Origin: Escherichia coli
GTDB lineage: Bacteria > Pseudomonadota > Gammaproteobacteria > Enterobacterales > Enterobacteriaceae
NCBI RefSeq assembly: GCF_003334255.1
Contig: NZ_QOWU01000005.1
Direction: 5' to 3' (one strand)
DNA: 64,000 nt
Part shown: positions 10,905-46,413 of the stretch, piece after piece
Position numbering within the stretch: the first letter of the stretch is position 1
Layout of the letters: every line of letters starts with the position of its first letter
Made by a program: the position numbers and the translations under genes
The notes under the pieces: generated by a model
Databases searched by the model: none
The model's input: the letters and a program-made list of their open reading frames with translations, nothing else
Told to the model about the DNA's origin: nothing

Positions 10905-11037
10905 GAAATAATCCCCATGCCGGTGAAGAAGGGGCGTGACTTTAGCGAAATGTTGCCGTCGCGACAACCGGAATATGAAAGCAAAGCGCAGCGTCTGAAT
11001 AACGTTTATGCTGAAAGCGGATGAATAAGGAGATGCG

Positions 11038-11886
11038 ATGTATACCCTGAACTGGCAGCCGCCGTATGACTGGTCGTGGATGTTGGGATTTCTCGCCGCC
11101 CGTGCGGTGAGCAGTGTGGAAACGGTCGCGGACAGTTATTATGCCCGTAGTCTGGCGGTGGGCGAATATCGCGGCGTGGTGACTGCTATTCCGGATATAG
11201 CCCGCCATACTCTGCACATAAATTTAAGTGCAGGTTTAGAACCTGTTGCCGCAGAGTGTCTGGCGAAAATGAGCCGCCTGTTTGATCTGCAATGTAACCC
11301 ACAAATTGTTAACGGTGCGTTGGGCAGGTTAGGCGCGGCGCGGCCCGGATTGCGTTTACCCGGCTGTGTTGATGCTTTTGAGCAGGGCGTGCGGGCGATT
11401 TTAGGCCAACTGGTGAGCGTGGCGATGGCGGCAAAATTGACCGCCAGAGTGGCACAGCTTTATGGCGAACGGCTGGATGATTTTCCGGAGTATATCTGCT
11501 TCCCGACGCCTCAGCGGCTGGCAGCAGCAGACCCGCAGGCATTAAAAGCGTTAGGTATGCCGTTGAAACGGGCAGAGGCGCTGATTCATCTGGCAAATGC
11601 GGCGCTGGAGGGCACCTTACCAATGACAATACCGGGCGATGTGGAGCAGGCGATGAAAACGCTGCAAACTTTTCCGGGTATCGGGCGCTGGACGGCGAAT
11701 TATTTTGCTTTGCGTGGCTGGCAGGCGAAAGATGTTTTCCTGCCGGATGATTATCTGATTAAACAGCGATTTCCGGGAATGACACCGGCGCAAATCCGCC
11801 GTTATGCCGAGCGCTGGAAGCCCTGGCGTTCTTATGCGCTGTTGCATATCTGGTATACGGAAGGCTGGCAACCAGACGAAGCATGA
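11038..11886 (+). CDS. alkA: 3-methyladenine DNA glycosylase II AlkA (282 aa)
   Basis: 282-aa ORF, length and position as for AlkA; HhH-GPD family sequence. Confidence 0.93.
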   Translation: MYTLNWQPPYDWSWMLGFLAARAVSSVETVADSYYARSLAVGEYRGVVTAIPDIARHTLHINLSAGLEPVAAECLAKMSRLFDLQCNPQIVNGALGRLGAARPGLRLPGCVDAFEQGVRAILGQLVSVAMAAKLTARVAQLYGERLDDFPEYICFPTPQRLAAADPQALKALGMPLKRAEALIHLANAALEGTLPMTIPGDVEQAMKTLQTFPGIGRWTANYFALRGWQAKDVFLPDDYLIKQRFPGMTPAQIRRYAERWKPWRSYALLHIWYTEGWQPDEA

Positions 11887-11892
11887 CGTTGG

Positions 11893-11980
11893 TCGCCGGA
11901 TGCGGTGCGAGCGCCTTATCCGGCCTGGGGAATGAGCGATTTGTAGGCATGATAAGACGCGTTAGCGTCGCATCAGGCGA
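11893..11980. repeat. REP (repetitive extragenic palindrome) pair between convergent alkA and yegE
   Basis: gccggatgcggtgcgagcgccttatccggcc and gcatgataagacgcgttagcgtcgcatcaggc palindromic units. Confidence 0.7.
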
Positions 11981-11994
11981 TGGGGAAGCACGCC

Positions 11995-14900
11995 TCAGTT
12001 AATCGCGAAATAACTACTATTCACCAGCAAATCCAGCGGTTGGGCATCGGCAATCACCTCACCATAAATCAGATCGACGCCGATGCCAGAAAGCGTATCC
12101 ATCACTAAGGGTAAAACGACTGGCCCGGCGATGGTTTTCATCCCGAGTCGCTGAGCGTGCCCCTGAATAATCGTAATCAGCATCTTATCCATCAAATTAC
12201 CCTGCACGTTGGCGCATAACTCACCATCAAGTAGCAGGTAATCTGCCATATTCGCTTTCAGCGAGTTGAAGATTTGCAGATCGCGGCCCACCTGGCTGAG
12301 CACTATCCGACATCCCGCCAGCCGCAGTTTTTGCACGCTTTCTGCGTGATCTAAAATCGCTTCAGCCGGAATAATCAGATGTAATAACCGTGGTGGTAGA
12401 GGGCTATTTTCCAGCTGCTCAAGCAGATCATTCACCAGCGTGGAGCTACTCAAACCGGCAACGGAAAGGGGGAGGGAGATGCTTATGCCTTTACTGGCAA
12501 CCGCTTTTGCGGCCTGCTGGAAAAATTCGTGGAATACCCGGCGGTCAAGAGCATGGCTAAGCGCCGGATCGCTGAAGCTACGACGAAATGTTTGTTCATC
12601 AATAATCTCGCCTTCGCAACTCCAGAGCTTAAGTGAAATCAGCCACAAATTACGCGCTTCCGGGATCCGTGGCGAAGCGACACCGTGGGCGAGCATCATC
12701 AACTGATTCTCTTTAATCATCCGCCACTGTTCATCAAGCGACATCGCCGCCCGTTCGCTATGTGCGGCAGCTTGCTGCGGTTCGTAAACCGTCACCCGGC
12801 CCCGGCCACCATTTTTGGAGGCATAACAGGCGATATCAGCCTGCGACATCACTTCTGCCGCCTGATGATTGTTGTCATCAATCAAGGTAATCCCGGCACT
12901 GGCACCTACCCGATGCACACGGCCTTCCCATATAAAGTGATAGTCATTCACGGCACTGATAATGCGTGTAGCGATAAAACGCGCGCTTTCAACATTACAG
13001 TCTGGTAGCAGCAGACCAAATTCATCCCCACCGAGTCGCGCCAGCACGTCGCTGGAACGCAGCATACTCAGCATTAACGACGCCAGTTCGCGCAGCAAAG
13101 CGTCACCCGCCGCATGCCCGGCGCTGTCATTCACCGCTTTAAAGCGATCAAGATCGATAAACACCAGGGCATGTCGCTGATGTGTACTGTTTACCGTTTG
13201 CAGCAGGATACGCAGTTGTTTCTCAAAACTGGCGCGGTTGGCGAGATGCGTCAGTGCATCATGGGAGGCGCTGTAGCTCAGCTGGCGCAGCATTTTGCGT
13301 GATTCGGTAACGTCCTGAATCACCAGAACCGAACCAATATTGCTGCCGTCCAGAGTACTTAACGGCGTAATACTGTAATGCACGTCGTAACTGCCGCCGC
13401 TCCGACAGTGCAACACCACATCTTGCTCGATCGCGGAACGTGAGGTGTCGGCACTGTAAATGTTCTCCATTAATGGTCCGTTGTCGCCAAAAGTAATATG
13501 CAACACCGTCAGGAGCGGAACACCTAACGCTTCTTCCTGCGTCCAGCCGCTCATCTTCTCCGCCACTGGATTCATAAAGGTAATTTTCATCGCCATATCA
13601 ATACAGACCACGGCTTCACCGATGGAATCAAGCGTAATGTGCAGGCGCTCTTTTTCCTGAAACAATGCCTCGTTAAGCTGTTTCACTTCGGTCATATCCA
13701 TATTGATGCCGAGGAGACGTTCGACTTCGCCTTCTTTATTCAGTACCCGGTTGGCGAGGGCGCGGATATGGCGAATACCGTCTTTTACGGTAATGCGAAA
13801 TTCCAGTTTAAAGGGCGAGCGTGATTGCAACGAATCACGAATCACTTTTTCGGCATGCTGGCGATCTTCCGGCAGCACGCACTCGTACCACACCTGCCAG
13901 TTCGGTTTGATATGTGGAGGAATTTCATACAGCTCGAACATCCGCTTATCCCAGCTAAAAATATTCGGCTTCAACTCCCACTCCCAGGTGCCAATCCCGC
14001 CCGCTTCGTTAGCCAGAGTGATGCGCTCCATCAGTTGCTGATTGACCTGTTCGGTGCGTTTTAGCTCGTTAATGTCTTCAATCTGAGCGATAAAATAGAG
14101 CGGCGTGCCATCCGTGTGGCGCACCAGTGAGACGGCAAGCAACGCCCAGACAACATCGCCATTGCGGTTGTAGTAGCGTTTTTCCATTGAATAGGTGTTT
14201 ATTTCACCGCTTATCAGCTTTTCAACCTGTTGGAGATCTTTATTGAGATCCTCCGGCCAGGTCAGTTGCTGAAAGGTGAGTCCGCGCAGCTCTTCCTGAC
14301 TGTACCCGAGAAACTGGCAGAGCGCTTTGTTGGTTTGCAGCCATTGTCCCTCGGTGCCCACTAACGCCATACCGATAGCGGAATATTCCATCGCGTTCCG
14401 AAAGTGGGTTTCGCTTTCGGAAATGTGTTTGCGTTCCGCACGAAAGGCATACATCACCATGGTCATGATGTTGGCGGGCAGCAGGATCAGCAAAAACGGT
14501 AGCCACGGCATATGGCTCATCAGGTACGTACGCGGCGTAGCAAGCAGGGAGGGATCCGCGGCCATCATCAGCGACACCATCATCACCGTGGTAAGGAAGA
14601 TCAAAAAGGCTTCCATTCGTGGCAGACGCACGGCGCTCCACATCAACAGCACAATAATGAAAGTAAAAGGCCACGGCAGATACAGCATCGAAAGCCAGCT
14701 TAACGTCAGTGTGATGGCTAACGTGAGCAGCGACTCAAAAAGCAACCGTGGGTTGCGATGGCGCAGCAGATAGTGTGGTTTAAATAACAATCCCAGCGGC
14801 ACCAGTGCCAGAGCGCCGATGGATTCTGACAGTACCCATATCAAAAATGCCCTGAGAGGATCGTCTCCGGGCGTCAGCAGGACAACCAGAACACCCCCCA

Positions 14901-15312
14901 ACAGAGGCGGAACAATGGCGCTGCCGAGTGCCAGACGCAGCCAGTCAGCCAGATTTTGCAAGGGGTTATACCACGGCAGCAATTTACGTAGCAGCACTGC
15001 CCCGACCACGGCTTCAACAATATTGATGGTCGTCCAGGTCATGTTCAGCGAGCTGGTGGAAAAAAGCAGGATGGATGCGGCGATATTTCCCAGCGAACAG
15101 CTCAGCGCAATTCCCGGCCACATGCGCCCGGCATGGCGATAAAACGCCACCATCATGATGGACGTCGGGAACCACAGTGGGGCGAGTTGGGTGCCAAACT
15201 GCGAAAGCTCAAGCGAGAAAAGGGTAAAGATAAACGAGACTAAACCTAAACTGACCAGGTGAAGCAGCGGGTGGGGCAGGGCAATTAATACATGCTGTGA
15301 TTGTTTGCTCAT
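11995..15312 (-). CDS. dgcE: Diguanylate cyclase DgcE/YegE (MASE1-PAS-GGDEF-EAL, 1105 aa)
   Basis: 1105-aa ORF; N-terminal multi-TM region, PAS repeats, GGDEF motif (RLGGDEFGLL), C-terminal EAL-like domain. Confidence 0.92.
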   Translation of the reverse strand: MSKQSQHVLIALPHPLLHLVSLGLVSFIFTLFSLELSQFGTQLAPLWFPTSIMMVAFYRHAGRMWPGIALSCSLGNIAASILLFSTSSLNMTWTTINIVEAVVGAVLLRKLLPWYNPLQNLADWLRLALGSAIVPPLLGGVLVVLLTPGDDPLRAFLIWVLSESIGALALVPLGLLFKPHYLLRHRNPRLLFESLLTLAITLTLSWLSMLYLPWPFTFIIVLLMWSAVRLPRMEAFLIFLTTVMMVSLMMAADPSLLATPRTYLMSHMPWLPFLLILLPANIMTMVMYAFRAERKHISESETHFRNAMEYSAIGMALVGTEGQWLQTNKALCQFLGYSQEELRGLTFQQLTWPEDLNKDLQQVEKLISGEINTYSMEKRYYNRNGDVVWALLAVSLVRHTDGTPLYFIAQIEDINELKRTEQVNQQLMERITLANEAGGIGTWEWELKPNIFSWDKRMFELYEIPPHIKPNWQVWYECVLPEDRQHAEKVIRDSLQSRSPFKLEFRITVKDGIRHIRALANRVLNKEGEVERLLGINMDMTEVKQLNEALFQEKERLHITLDSIGEAVVCIDMAMKITFMNPVAEKMSGWTQEEALGVPLLTVLHITFGDNGPLMENIYSADTSRSAIEQDVVLHCRSGGSYDVHYSITPLSTLDGSNIGSVLVIQDVTESRKMLRQLSYSASHDALTHLANRASFEKQLRILLQTVNSTHQRHALVFIDLDRFKAVNDSAGHAAGDALLRELASLMLSMLRSSDVLARLGGDEFGLLLPDCNVESARFIATRIISAVNDYHFIWEGRVHRVGASAGITLIDDNNHQAAEVMSQADIACYASKNGGRGRVTVYEPQQAAAHSERAAMSLDEQWRMIKENQLMMLAHGVASPRIPEARNLWLISLKLWSCEGEIIDEQTFRRSFSDPALSHALDRRVFHEFFQQAAKAVASKGISISLPLSVAGLSSSTLVNDLLEQLENSPLPPRLLHLIIPAEAILDHAESVQKLRLAGCRIVLSQVGRDLQIFNSLKANMADYLLLDGELCANVQGNLMDKMLITIIQGHAQRLGMKTIAGPVVLPLVMDTLSGIGVDLIYGEVIADAQPLDLLVNSSYFAIN

Positions 15313-15629
15313 TACCGCTTTATCCGCAAGACCTGGTCGCCAGTATTCGTTTCTGTGTTTATGCTAGTACAAAAGTTTTACATTTTATATGCGAATTGCT
15401 CATAAAGTGACGTAAAGGCGGATAATTTGCGCAACTGCGTATAACATTTTTTACCTTACATAAAACTGATCAACGTAATTTGCCCCCGGGAATTCTTTGT
15501 CAACAATTAACTCTGAGCGCGCGGCAACGCTATTCGACTGGTATCAGACGGATGAAATCCCTATAATTGCCGCGTTTGGCGCTTCGTCGCCCCCTTCCTA
15601 ACATCCAGGTTAATCAGGTCGCTAAATAT

Positions 15630-16271
15630 ATGACTGATCAGTCTCATCAGTGCGTCATTATCGGTATCGCTGGCGCATCGGCTTCCGGCAAGAGTCTTAT
15701 TGCCAGTACCCTTTATCGTGAATTGCGTGAGCAAGTCGGTGATGAACACATCGGCGTAATTCCCGAAGACTGCTATTACAAAGATCAAAGCCATCTGTCG
15801 ATGGAAGAACGCGTTAAGACCAACTACGACCATCCCAGCGCGATGGATCACAGTCTGCTGCTTGAGCATTTACAAGCGTTGAAACGCGGCTCGGCAATTG
15901 ACCTGCCGGTTTACAGCTATGTTGAACATACGCGTATGAAAGAAACGGTGACGGTTGAGCCGAAGAAGGTCATCATTCTCGAAGGCATTTTGTTGCTGAC
16001 GGATGCGCGTTTGCGTGACGAACTTAACTTCTCCATTTTCGTTGATACCCCGCTGGATATCTGCCTGATGCGCCGCATCAAGCGTGACGTTAACGAGCGT
16101 GGGCGTTCAATGGATTCAGTGATGGCGCAATATCAAAAAACCGTGCGCCCGATGTTCCTGCAATTCATTGAGCCTTCTAAACAATATGCGGACATTATCG
16201 TGCCGCGCGGCGGGAAAAACCGCATCGCGATCGATATATTGAAAGCGAAAATAAGTCAGTTCTTTGAATAA
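15630..16271 (+). CDS. udk: Uridine/cytidine kinase Udk (213 aa)
   Basis: Trimmed from the 234-aa ORF to the ATG giving [25 protein letters not shown] (P-loop); canonical length. Confidence 0.93.
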
Positions 16272-16362
16272 GCTTGATAAATTGTGTACCGTTCAGTGAT
16301 AACCTGGTATGCCCTTGACGTAATTGGCGTTAAGGGAGTGATGCGCGAAAGGAGAAAATGCC

Positions 16363-16944
16363 ATGCGTCTGTGTGACCGAGATATTGAAGCCTGGCTTGA
16401 TGAAGGCCGTTTGTCGATCAACCCACGTCCGCCAGTGGAGCGTATTAACGGCGCGACGGTGGATGTACGCCTGGGCAATAAATTTCGTACCTTCCGTGGT
16501 CACACGGCAGCGTTTATCGATCTGAGCGGTCCCAAAGATGAAGTGAGCGCCGCGCTTGACCGCGTGATGAGCGATGAGATCGTTCTCGACGAGGGCGAGG
16601 CGTTCTATCTTCACCCAGGAGAGCTGGCGCTGGCGGTGACGCTGGAGTCGGTGACGCTGCCAGCCGATCTGGTGGGCTGGCTGGACGGGCGTTCCTCACT
16701 GGCGCGTCTGGGGCTGATGGTGCACGTCACCGCGCACCGCATCGATCCGGGCTGGTCTGGTTGCATTGTGCTGGAGTTCTACAACTCCGGTAAGCTGCCG
16801 CTGGCGCTGCGTCCGGGCATGTTAATTGGTGCGCTGAGCTTTGAGCCGCTTTCCGGCCCGGCGGCGCGACCTTACAACCGCCGTGAAGATGCGAAATATC
16901 GCAACCAGCAGGGCGCGGTAGCCAGCCGAATCGATAAAGACTAA
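16363..16944 (+). CDS. dcd: dCTP deaminase Dcd (193 aa)
   Basis: 193-aa ORF beginning [17 protein letters not shown]; dUTPase-fold deaminase. Confidence 0.95.
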
Positions 16945-16965
16945 TTCAGGCCCATTGAGGATACC

Positions 16966-18819
16966 ATGAGACGATTTCTGACGACGCTGATGATACTCCT
17001 GGTCGTGCTGGTGGCCGGGTTATCTGCGTTAGTGTTGCTGGTGAATCCGAATGATTTCCGCGACTATATGGTCAAGCAAGTTGCTGCACGTAGCGGTTAT
17101 CAATTGCAGCTCGACGGGCCACTGCGTTGGCACGTCTGGCCGCAGCTTAGTATCCTCTCCGGGCGAATGTCTCTCACCGCCCAGGGCGCAAGCCAGCCAC
17201 TGGTTCGCGCCGACAACATGCGTCTGGACGTGGCGCTTTTACCACTACTGAGTCATCAACTGAGCGTTAAGCAGGTGATGCTAAAAGGGGCAGTGATCCA
17301 ACTGACGCCGCAGACGGAAGCGGTGCGCAGTGAAGACGCTCCGGTTGCACCGCGCGACAATACCTTGCCGGATCTGTCAGACGATCGCGGATGGTCGTTT
17401 GATATATCCAGTCTTAAGGTGGCGGACAGCGTGCTGGTGTTCCAGCATGAAGATGACGAGCAGGTGACAATCCGCAATATTCGCCTGCAAATGGAACAAG
17501 ATCCCCAACATCGTGGTTCATTTGAGTTCTCCGGGCGGGTTAATCGCGATCAGCGCGATCTCACGATATCCCTTAACGGTACGGTAGATGCTTCTGATTA
17601 TCCGCATGATTTAACGGCGGCTATTGAACAAATTAACTGGCAGTTGCAGGGTGCCGATTTACCAAAACAAGGTATTCAGGGGCAGGGGAGTTTCCAGGCC
17701 CAGTGGCAGGAGTCACATAAACGCCTTTCATTTAACCAAATTAGTTTGACCGCCAATGATAGTACGCTAAGCGGGCAAGCACAGGTTACGCTGACAGAGA
17801 AACCGGAATGGCAGCTGAGGCTGCAATTCCCGCAACTGAATCTTGACAACCTCATCCCGCTTAATGAAACCGCGAATGGTGAAAACGGTGCCGCGCAGCA
17901 GGGGCAGAGCCAATCAACGTTGCCGCGCCCGGTCATTTCTTCGCGTATTGATGAACCGGCCTATCAGGGACTGCAAGGCTTTACGGCTGATATTTTGTTG
18001 CAGGCCAGTAACGTGCGCTGGCGCGGAATGAATTTTACAGATGTTGCCACGCAAATGACCAACAAGTCGGGTTTGCTGGAAATTACTCAACTGCAGGGCA
18101 AACTTAACGGTGGACAGGTTTCACTGCCGGGCACGCTGGACGCGACATCAATAAATCCGCGGATAAACTTCCAGCCAGGGCTGGAAAACGTTGAGATTGG
18201 TACCATTCTGAAGGCGTTTAACTATCCGATTTCGTTGACCGGAAAAATGTCACTGGCTGGTGATTTCTCCGGTGCTGACATAGATGCCGACGCATTCCGC
18301 CACAACTGGCAAGGACAGGCACATGTCGAAATGACCGACACGCGCATGGAAGGGATGAACTTCCAGCAGATGATTCAGCAAGCGGTAGAGCGTAATGGCG
18401 GTGATGTGAAGGCCGCTGAAAACTTTGATAACGTGACGCGGCTTGACCGCTTTACCACCGATTTGACGTTGAAGGATGGCGTCGTGACGTTAAACGACAT
18501 GCAAGGTCAATCGCCTGTGCTGGCGCTGACAGGGGAAGGCATGTTGAATCTGGCAGATCAAACCTGCGACACCCAGTTTGATATTCGGGTCGTGGGTGGC
18601 TGGAACGGGGAAAGCAAACTGATTGATTTCCTGAAAGAAACGCCAGTACCGCTGCGGGTTTATGGCAACTGGCAGCAACTCAATTACAGCCTGCAAGTGG
18701 ATCAGTTACTGCGCAAACATCTACAGGACGAAGCGAAACGTCGCCTGAATGACTGGGCCGAGCGGAATAAAGATTCCCGTAATGGCAAAGATGTGAAGAA
18801 GTTGCTGGAGAAGATGTAG
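16966..18819 (+). CDS. asmA: Outer-membrane assembly protein AsmA (617 aa)
   Basis: 617-aa ORF with N-terminal membrane anchor; follows dcd. Confidence 0.93.
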   Translation: MRRFLTTLMILLVVLVAGLSALVLLVNPNDFRDYMVKQVAARSGYQLQLDGPLRWHVWPQLSILSGRMSLTAQGASQPLVRADNMRLDVALLPLLSHQLSVKQVMLKGAVIQLTPQTEAVRSEDAPVAPRDNTLPDLSDDRGWSFDISSLKVADSVLVFQHEDDEQVTIRNIRLQMEQDPQHRGSFEFSGRVNRDQRDLTISLNGTVDASDYPHDLTAAIEQINWQLQGADLPKQGIQGQGSFQAQWQESHKRLSFNQISLTANDSTLSGQAQVTLTEKPEWQLRLQFPQLNLDNLIPLNETANGENGAAQQGQSQSTLPRPVISSRIDEPAYQGLQGFTADILLQASNVRWRGMNFTDVATQMTNKSGLLEITQLQGKLNGGQVSLPGTLDATSINPRINFQPGLENVEIGTILKAFNYPISLTGKMSLAGDFSGADIDADAFRHNWQGQAHVEMTDTRMEGMNFQQMIQQAVERNGGDVKAAENFDNVTRLDRFTTDLTLKDGVVTLNDMQGQSPVLALTGEGMLNLADQTCDTQFDIRVVGGWNGESKLIDFLKETPVPLRVYGNWQQLNYSLQVDQLLRKHLQDEAKRRLNDWAERNKDSRNGKDVKKLLEKM

Positions 18820-44337: not shown

Positions 44338-44511
44338 ATTTGCGACCATTCCTGGAAAAATGGAGCCATACTTAGGAACAATGCTACTGCAATCCACAAC
44401 GAAGCGGCGTAACATCACAAGTAATTCAGTAATCAATTCAGGGTAATTAATGCTGGCGAAAAAAATCGAACAAGCTATAATTCAGCAACCATTTTACAGG
44501 TGGATGAAATA

Positions 44512-45405
44512 ATGACGAATTTAAAAGCAGTTATTCCTGTGGCGGGTCTTGGGATGCATATGTTGCCTGCCACTAAGGCGATTCCCAAAGAGATGCTACC
44601 GATCGTCGACAAGCCAATGATTCAGTACATTGTTGACGAGATTGTGGCTGCAGGGATCAAAGAAATCCTCCTGGTAACTCACGCGTCCAAGAACGCGGTC
44701 GAAAACCACTTCGACACCTCTTATGAATTAGAATCTCTCCTTGAACAGCGCGTGAAGCGTCAACTACTGGCGGAAGTGCAGTCCATCTGTCCGCCGGGCG
44801 TGACCATTATGAACGTGCGTCAGGGCGAACCTTTAGGTTTGGGCCACTCCATTTTGTGTGCACGACCTGCCATTGGTGACAACCCATTTGTCGTGGTGCT
44901 GCCAGACGTTGTGATCGATGACGCCAGCGCCGACCCGCTGCGCTACAATCTTGCTGCCATGATTGCGCGCTTCAACGAAACGGGCCGCAGCCAGGTGCTG
45001 GCAAAACGTATGCCGGGTGACCTCTCTGAATACTCCGTCATTCAGACCAAAGAACCGCTGGATCGTGAAGGTAAAGTCAGCCGCATTGTTGAATTTATCG
45101 AAAAACCGGATCAGCCGCAGACGCTGGACTCAGATATTATGGCCGTTGGTCGCTATGTGCTTTCTGCCGATATTTGGCCGGAACTTGAACGTACTCAGCC
45201 TGGTGCATGGGGGCGTATTCAGCTGACTGATGCCATTGCCGAACTGGCGAAAAAACAGTCCGTTGATGCAATGCTGATGACTGGTGACAGCTACGACTGC
45301 GGTAAAAAAATGGGCTATATGCAGGCGTTTGTGAAGTATGGACTGCGCAACCTGAAAGAAGGGGCGAAGTTCCGTAAAGGTATTGAAAAGCTGTTAAGCG
45401 AATAA
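44512..45405 (+). CDS. galF: UTP-glucose-1-phosphate uridylyltransferase paralogue GalF (297 aa)
   Basis: Trimmed from the 301-aa ORF to [30 protein letters not shown]. Confidence 0.93.
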
Positions 45406-45663
45406 TGAAAATCTGACCGAATGTAACGGTTGATAAGAAAATTATAACGGCGGTGAAGATTCGTGGCGAAAGTAATTTGTTGCGAATATTCCTGCCGTTA
45501 TTTTATATAAACAATCAGAATAACAACGAGTTAGCAATAGGATTTTAGTCAAAGTTTTCCAGGATTTTCCTTGTTTCCGTAGCTGATTGGTAAGACAATT
45601 AGTGTTTGAATTTTTCAGGTTTAGCGCGAGTGGGTAACGCTCGTCACATCGTAGGCATGCATG

Positions 45664-45702
45664 CAGTGCTCTGGTAGCTGTAAAGCCAGGGGCGGTAGCG
45701 TG
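45664..45702 (+). promoter_or_regulatory. JUMPstart element with ops site GGCGGTAGCGTG (45691-45702) upstream of the O-antigen operon
   Basis: cagtgctctggtagctgtaaagccaggggcggtagcgtg; near-identical to the copy upstream of wza. Confidence 0.85.
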
Positions 45703-45871
45703 TCTAGGGCAGGGAAAGATCACGTGGTGCTGCTTTTTTGTACTAAACAATTTGCATTTTATGTTCAATAATTGAGACATTCCTTATTACCTAAAACTGT
45801 TTTTCATTGCTTATACATGAGCAAATACTCCTTACATAATTAAGGAGAACAAAATTGAACTTAAAAAATTG

Positions 45872-46339
45872 ATGGAACATATTTCTATTATCCTCGATTA
45901 TAGACAAGCTAGGAAAGTGAAACATAAATTGTTTGATATTCTACTGTTGACTATTTGCGCACTTATTTCTGGTGCAGAAGGCTGAAAAGATATAGATGGT
46001 TTTTGGGAAACGCATCTTGATTTTTTTAACAATATCGTGATTTTGAAAATGGTATTCCTATTCACTATACCATTGCCAGAGTTGTATCCTGTATCAGTTC
46101 TACAAAATTTCATGAGTGTTTTATTAACTGGATGCGTGATTGTCATTCTTAAGATGATAAAGACGTCATTGCAATTGATGGAAAAACGCTCCGGCATTCT
46201 TATGACAAGAGTCGTCGCAGGAGAGCGATTCATGTCATTGGTGCATTCTCAACTATGCACAGTCTGGTCATCGGACAGATCAAGACGGATGAACAGAAAC
46301 TACCTAGCGTCAGTCCTTGCGGGGAGCGGGCTTTCGTAA
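45872..46339 (+). mobile_element. Truncated and disrupted H-repeat (ISAs1-family) transposase remnant
   Basis: Translation [37 protein letters not shown](stop)KDIDGFWETHLDFF... resembles the H-repeat protein N-terminus with an in-frame stop and frame disruptions; a C-terminal-like fragment [16 protein letters not shown] ends at 46339. Confidence 0.7.
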
Positions 46340-46413
46340 TCTTGCCTGTAGCGTTATTTGTTTTCGAGAATAAATATATAATACTCCATGTGGATATTTA
46401 GTTAAAAGAGGAT

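Follow-up and report, generated by a model that had tools for sequence, protein, structure and literature searches.

What separates wzx, the gene with which the O167 O-antigen cluster opens, from the JUMPstart/ops element upstream of it, and does the DNA in between mark the point at which this cluster was joined to the chromosome? An earlier sequence-only reading of the window (the whole 64-kb stretch of Escherichia coli DNA analysed here, to which all positions refer unless another locus is named) had proposed that this gap holds the degraded remnant of an H-repeat (ISAs1-family) transposase, located at 45872–46339, and that the remnant may be the scar of a cluster acquisition. We examined the element by comparison with intact insertion sequences, with other O167-type loci and with other O-antigen clusters carrying ISAs1 elements in the same place. 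The comparisons argue strongly for an ISEc1-like insertion sequence that survives only as a non-functional fossil in the leader of the O167 operon, an explanation in which we have high confidence.

Extent and identity of the element

At the left of the locus, galF (44500–45405) is followed by JUMPstart on the plus strand (45664–45702; Rfam RF01707, 60 bits compared to a gathering score of 35 bits, E = 4.4e-13), which includes the ops sequence GGCGGTAGCGTG (45691–45702). The last base of ops is also the last base of the homology that is found species-wide. A 7-bp spacer reading TCTAGGG (45703–45709, plus strand) then leads to the left end of an ISEc1-like (ISAs1-family, "H-repeat") relic of 639 bp and 36.6% GC (45710–46348, plus strand), the limits of which were set by blastn against intact ISEc1 and the orientation of which is that of the O-antigen operon. 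No other IS copy is homologous past 46348, and the DNA beyond is serogroup-specific: an O167-specific leader of 65 bp (46349–46413, plus strand), beginning with TAGCGT (a repeat of the 3′ part of ops), extends up to wzx (46414–47679, with a GTG start at 46414), after which glf follows. At the identical locus of strain 214-4, RefSeq uses the names "O167 family O-antigen flippase" and "O167 family O-antigen polymerase". A minus-strand ORF of 112 aa (45442–45780), which spans the galF–wzx intergenic region, JUMPstart and the left end of the IS, is almost certainly spurious.

The identity of the relic was established against an intact 1,292-bp ISEc1 copy taken from an Rhs region in a different E. 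coli strain. blastn aligned positions 45709–46292 with this copy at 534/586 identities (91%, E = 0), and positions 46289–46346 with its extreme right end at 55/58 identities (95%, E = 3e-22). The frame-repaired translation of the relic scored 138.7 bits with the NCBIfam model NF033564 "ISAs1 family transposase" (curated cut-off of 70 bits), with the match confined to positions 1–121 of the 314 in the profile, and it matched the Pfam domain DDE_Tnp_1_assoc (PF13808) at E = 8e-27 over model positions 2–88 of 88. It was 81% identical to the intact transposase across 154 aa. The DDE domain itself (PF01609) was reduced to a stub (model positions 3–56, or 54/200; E = 0.017), and the relic does not encode a complete DDE domain in a single ORF of ~378 aa. 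Judged by these matches, the relic is the remnant of an ISAs1 family member and not a functional member. As such it is already known, since it belongs to a well-known class and RefSeq has a pseudogene entry at the identical locus of strain 214-4, named "ISAs1 family transposase" (incomplete, frameshifted and with an internal stop). The body of literature searched contained no paper on the O167 relic specifically. H-repeat remnants within O-antigen loci have been under discussion since the 1990s.

The insertion sequence still has both of its terminal inverted repeats and its 5′ untranslated part, together with ~147 codons from the N-terminal side of the transposase gene and the ~15 codons at its very end. 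The left inverted repeat, CAGGGAAAGATCACG (45710–45724, plus strand), lines up with the same end of intact copies. Against the right end, read as its reverse complement (CAGG-CAAGATTACG), it pairs at 12/14 aligned positions with one 1-nt gap. The right inverted repeat, ending in TCGTAATCTTGCCTG (46334–46348, plus strand), has one C fewer than that of intact copies (CTTGCCCTG). Between them, translation and alignment to intact copies placed codons 1 to ~58 of the transposase pseudogene at 45854–46029 (plus strand) and codons ~59–147 in a second segment at 46030–46292 (plus strand), which ends in IGQIKTD and aligns with residues 60–147 of the intact protein. This second segment runs into a deletion junction (46289–46292, plus strand), where both blastn alignments share 4 nt (subject positions 635 and 1282). 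The last 15 transposase codons and the stop codon follow out of frame (46292–46339, plus strand), with 15/22 identities to intact residues 357–378.

These results confirm what had been noticed from the letters alone. The peptide of 37 residues ending at a TGA is present at 45872–45985 (within a 38-aa ORF at 45869–45985), the C-terminal-like fragment of 15 residues is joined on at 46292–46339, the similarity to ISAs1 transposases is clear at both the nucleotide and the protein level, the whole lies between JUMPstart/ops and wzx, and the terminal inverted repeats that the reading had suggested looking for are both there. Two points called for refinement. The span 45872–46339 lies inside the element but is shorter than the true 45710–46348, because it left out 162 bp of mostly non-coding IS left end in front of the ATG chosen by the reader, as well as both inverted repeats. 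Likewise, the N-terminal part of the transposase is recognisable, but it extends over ~147 codons, of which only 37 had been noticed because a 1-bp deletion at 46029/46030 moves the continuation into another frame.

Compared to ISEc1/H-repeat elements (H-rpt; YhhI-type transposase), the relic therefore shows 91–95% nucleotide identity over both its ends, the same terminal repeats starting with CAGGG, and the same N-terminal DDE_Tnp_1_assoc domain. It differs from them in its length (639 bp versus ~1,292 bp), in the deleted DDE core, in its lost start codon, two stop codons and frameshift, and in being without a target-site duplication. It also sits in an O-antigen leader, whereas the intact reference copy sits in an Rhs element.

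Inactivation and inheritance with the O167 cluster

The alignments revealed that the transposase gene has been inactivated several times over. Its start codon has changed from ATG to ATT (45854–45856), nonsense codons have replaced TGG (now TGA, 45983–45985) and TCA (now TAA, 46150–46152), and a single base pair has been deleted between 46029 and 46030, leaving the following ~88 codons in another frame. The largest lesion is an out-of-frame deletion of 650 bp (approximately IS positions 586–1235, codons ~148–364), with which the DDE catalytic core has gone, and the junction of which shows a microhomology of 3–4 nt at most (ATGA versus ATGG). The right inverted repeat, in addition, has lost 1 bp. 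No evidence contradicting the pseudogene reading was found, and it belongs to the same strongly favoured explanation that the relic encodes nothing functional and cannot move.

The substitutions tell a similar story of decay. Within 583 bp, 31 substitutions are private to the relic, 23 of them from GC to AT and 4 from AT to GC, and those in the coding part fall on codon positions 1, 2 and 3 in the numbers 12, 3 and 13. This excess of GC-to-AT changes, together with their spread across codon positions, points to unconstrained, AT-biased neutral decay and not to selection acting on a transposase. The relic is 88–91% identical to every other copy with which it was compared, while those copies reach up to 96–97% identity among themselves. 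With a distinct ISEc1 sublineage as its source, however, part of the ~9% divergence may be older than the inactivation, and the divergence is therefore no direct measure of the relic's age. Stripped of its private changes, the relic would resemble an ordinary enterobacterial ISEc1 lineage more than a foreign ISAs1 element.

The distribution of the relic was followed in 5,426 complete E. coli genomes. Its right junction together with the leader occurred in only three of these (strains 214-4, 23AR1101 and Res13-Lact-PER13-34), in all cases between galF and wzx(O167). Five further contigs from NCBI assemblies and metagenomes encode an identical Wzx and carry the 36-mer across the deletion junction, so that every other O167-type locus examined (the 3/5,426 genomes and these five contigs) has the same relic and the same deletion junction; the 36-mer was present in all seven of the other O167-type loci having an upstream flank. 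The protein cluster of this Wzx also includes records named Shigella boydii. At no other locus in the 5,426 E. coli genomes was the deletion junction found, and the 36-mer was absent from the GTDB representative genomes. The occurrence of the same junction at all O167 loci and at no other locus indicates that the relic is immobile and has become fixed with the cluster. Moreover, the alleles of all three genomes have every lesion in common, that of Res13-Lact-PER13-34 differing from that of 214-4 at 8 other sites, and lesions common to the known O167 alleles indicate that the relic was dead before those alleles diverged. Since the junction is common to all known alleles, it also indicates a single origin of the cluster in Escherichia, and it can serve as a clean marker that is unique to the cluster, whether in O167 or under the name Shigella boydii.

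Taken together, these observations point to a history in which the untranslated leader of the O167 operon would originally have held an intact copy of ~1.29 kb, 7 bp after ops and oriented with the operon. As read from the alignments, its inactivation involved the illegitimate 650-bp deletion of the DDE core, the loss of the start codon, the two nonsense codons and the 1-bp frameshift. AT-biased neutral substitutions accumulated, and the right terminal repeat lost its 1 bp. The resulting relic is now a fixed component of the O167 cluster and is passed on with it, both in E. coli and in the records named Shigella boydii.

The element as a possible recombination seam

A further question is whether the insertion sequence took part in bringing the O167 genes to their present place, as the left crossover or joining point at which the O167 gene set was attached to the galF–JUMPstart backbone, either by homologous recombination between two IS copies or by an IS-mediated cointegrate or deletion. 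We regard this as a possible but rather improbable origin, and hold an active role of the IS in assembling or importing the O167 cluster to be similarly doubtful. The position of the relic is certainly suggestive. The homology of the backbone ends at 45702, the last base of ops, and across 2,558 matching E. coli genomes, taken as a spread sample, almost every JUMPstart match stops at query position 83, which corresponds to window position 45702. On the other side, O167-specific DNA begins exactly at the right end of the IS (46349), so that the relic lies precisely at the border of two differing DNA segments, as at a D2-type junction. The GC content steps down accordingly, from 48% (wcaM–galF) over 37% (relic) to 31% (cluster).

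The flanks of the relic also show no target-site duplication (GTGTCTAGGG versus TAGCGTTATT). As a positive control, an ISEc1 copy nested in another in strain ATCC 8739 has a perfect 10-bp duplication, ACAAGCCTGG, on both of its sides, indicating that the element does make duplications on transposing. ISAs1 elements in the same slot and orientation in O15, O3 and CP131 clusters are likewise without duplications. For the O167 relic, however, a missing duplication could also be explained by later turnover of the flanks. An IS1 in the same gap of an O23 locus suggests that the site simply tolerates insertions.

Precedents for such a role exist. An H-repeat has been proposed as the recombination agent in the Salmonella group D2 cluster, where it lies at a recombination junction (PMC3715488), and IS-associated gene replacement has been reported within E. 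coli O-antigen clusters (PMC4379981). In the Salmonella enterica D2 case (the Xiang, Hobbs and Reeves model, in the summary given by PMC3715488), a degraded H-repeat remnant at the D1/E junction likewise stands between segments of differing history. There, however, the remnant is inside the cluster and the two parents of that cluster are known, whereas the O167 relic is at the extreme 5′ edge of its cluster, beside ops, and no parental clusters for it were found. Specifically, the 5,426 genomes yielded neither a parental cluster nor an IS-free O167 allele in Escherichia. A second ISEc1-homologous stretch or remnant, as would be the sign of a composite transposon, was not present elsewhere in the 64-kb window. 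The IS bodies of the O167, O15, O3 and CP131 clusters, finally, stand in a star-like relation and are not specific relatives.

The only relative of the cluster that was found is diverged and free of IS. This cluster of Edwardsiella tarda (L019/L020, positions 7838–17263) is syntenic with that of O167, in the order wzx–glf–GT4–ATP-grasp–GT2–(a gene giving no Pfam hit)–GT1–GT2–GT2, thus sharing glf and the ATP-grasp amidoligase, and its Wzx is 69% identical to that of O167. It lies behind a JUMPstart of its own (54.5 bits) beside udk–dcd–asmA, and has a leader of 124 nt between JUMPstart and wzx without an IS, an observation in favour of the seam. The similarity between the O167 and E. tarda leaders is nevertheless not significant (z = 1.9). 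Marine Vibrio, Shewanella and Photobacterium account for most of the more distant Wzx relatives.

The 7-mer GTAGCGT, from the 3′ part of ops, occurs at 45695–45701 and again at 46348–46354, where it straddles the right end of the IS and the wzx leader; this recurrence could be due to chance or be the vestige of a second ops. The right flank of the O167 element, which begins with TAGCGT, resembles the E. tarda sequence GGCGG followed by TAGCTTTTCTTG at 9/12 positions, the overall leader alignment being the non-significant one given above. A vestigial second ops, sought by comparing the right-flank leader with that of E. tarda starting at ops, was considered and rejected: only the region of the ribosome-binding site aligns convincingly, and the overall score is not significant (25/500 shuffles). 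The element may thus be the scar of an acquisition boundary, a reading that is compatible with the homology borders and the missing duplication, and against which stand the absence of a second IS from the window and of a parental cluster from the Escherichia genomes searched.

Related insertions behind ops and the O167 leader

The junction between JUMPstart and an IS left end was covered in 108/5,426 complete E. coli genomes, and ISAs1 elements were found just after ops in at least three other clusters. In O15, the ISAs1/ISEc1 element is intact in strain ERP001 (L006, 3581–4880) and in strain 4238, while ATCC 8739 (L003, 3581–6180) and UID2309220041 carry a nested pair. Corresponding ISAs1/ISEc1 elements lie in the O3 locus of strain GF4-3 (L004, 3580–4900) and in the CP131 cluster (L005, 3583–4870). 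All of these elements start 7–10 bp after ops (~92 bp in O3), are oriented with the operon and have serogroup-specific DNA at their right end. They share the slot and orientation of the O167 relic and, like it, have no target-site duplication; unlike it, they are of full length or nearly so, and with 88–91% identity to the relic they are not its specific relatives. A single ancestral copy behind the O167, O15 and O3 elements was therefore considered but found unsupported, as both the pairwise identities and the informative sites are star-like.

In ATCC 8739 (L003, ~3785–5100) and in L007, the nested pair consists of one ISEc1 inside another ISEc1, upstream of the O15 wzx, the inserted copy being flanked by the duplication ACAAGCCTGG. 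The spacer TCTAGGG (with or without one G) also occurs in the O15 loci, and TCTAGGG follows ops in O3, while the CP131 spacer differs (GGGGAATTCT). As a marker linked to the IS, TCTAGGG is weakened by the occurrence of TCTAG after ops in an O23 locus without ISAs1. In the O3 locus of GF4-3 (L004, 3575–3665), an extra 85 bp separate TCTAGGG from the left end of the IS. Together with the preceding CTAGGG, this extra stretch reads CTAGGGGAAGATCATCG, which is like an ISAs1 left repeat and could be what is left of an earlier element. The O23 locus of strain UID2309220033 (L008, 3590–4500) carries an IS1B in the gap between JUMPstart and the first gene, on the opposite strand, by which the gap seems tolerant of more than one IS family.

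This recurrence of ISAs1 just after ops in several unrelated clusters is a mildly interesting by-product of the analysis. It might suggest that ISAs1/H-repeats act as a portable homology "adaptor" for exchanging entire O-antigen cassettes downstream of a JUMPstart that stays in place, with the O167 relic as a fossil of such a swap and TAGCGT as the vestige of the ops of the incoming cluster, although we consider this unlikely. The O167 locus together with the O15, O3 and CP131 loci offers a small comparative set for weighing a tolerated ISAs1 against cassette exchange. The relic itself, as a dead and already annotated insertion sequence, is of little importance.

For the preferred reading of a dead fossil, the remaining matter is how the operon would live with it. 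In operons controlled by ops and RfaH, RfaH acts at ops to modify the polymerase, which then transcribes through the sequences downstream. By analogy, polymerase starting upstream of JUMPstart and modified by RfaH at ops would probably read through the relic into wzx, and the relic would be transcribed passively as 639 extra nt of the operon leader. A scan of the sequence found no terminator-like site on the plus strand inside the relic. The insertion would presumably be tolerated because it disrupts no gene, contains no such plus-strand terminator and lies downstream of ops, and an insertion tolerated at such a position can drift to fixation with its cluster.

It is very unlikely that the relic has instead been exapted as a regulatory leader, in which it would lend a promoter, RNA or leader function to wzx and the downstream genes. 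Such a role could account for the same orientation of the element in all four serogroups that have it in this slot and for its being kept in every O167 locus seen, but a neutral insert in a cluster inherited as a block would be expected to persist anyway. Weak sigma-70-like matches are present on the plus strand (45744–45772, 45812–45840 and 45901–45930), yet promoter-like sites in the relic are no commoner than in shuffled sequence (6 compared to an expected 3.4 ± 1.8). The substitution pattern moreover looks neutral, and the homologous E. tarda cluster does without any such element.

That the relic could be a MITE-like non-autonomous element, mobilised in trans by intact ISEc1 transposases, would be in line with its two retained inverted repeats and with a median of ~5 ISAs1-matching places per E. 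coli genome, but its right repeat is short of one base, it has no target-site duplication, and its restriction to the single O167 locus among the 5,426 genomes, with none in the GTDB representatives, effectively refutes this reading.

One of the three complete genomes with the relic, that of Res13-Lact-PER13-34 (NZ_CP062824.1; L010), is labelled O169:H41, yet has a wzx, wzy and cluster of the O167 family. An O167:H41 clade of ST182 has been described (PMC8454413), which this genome fits, and its serotype label appears to be wrong.
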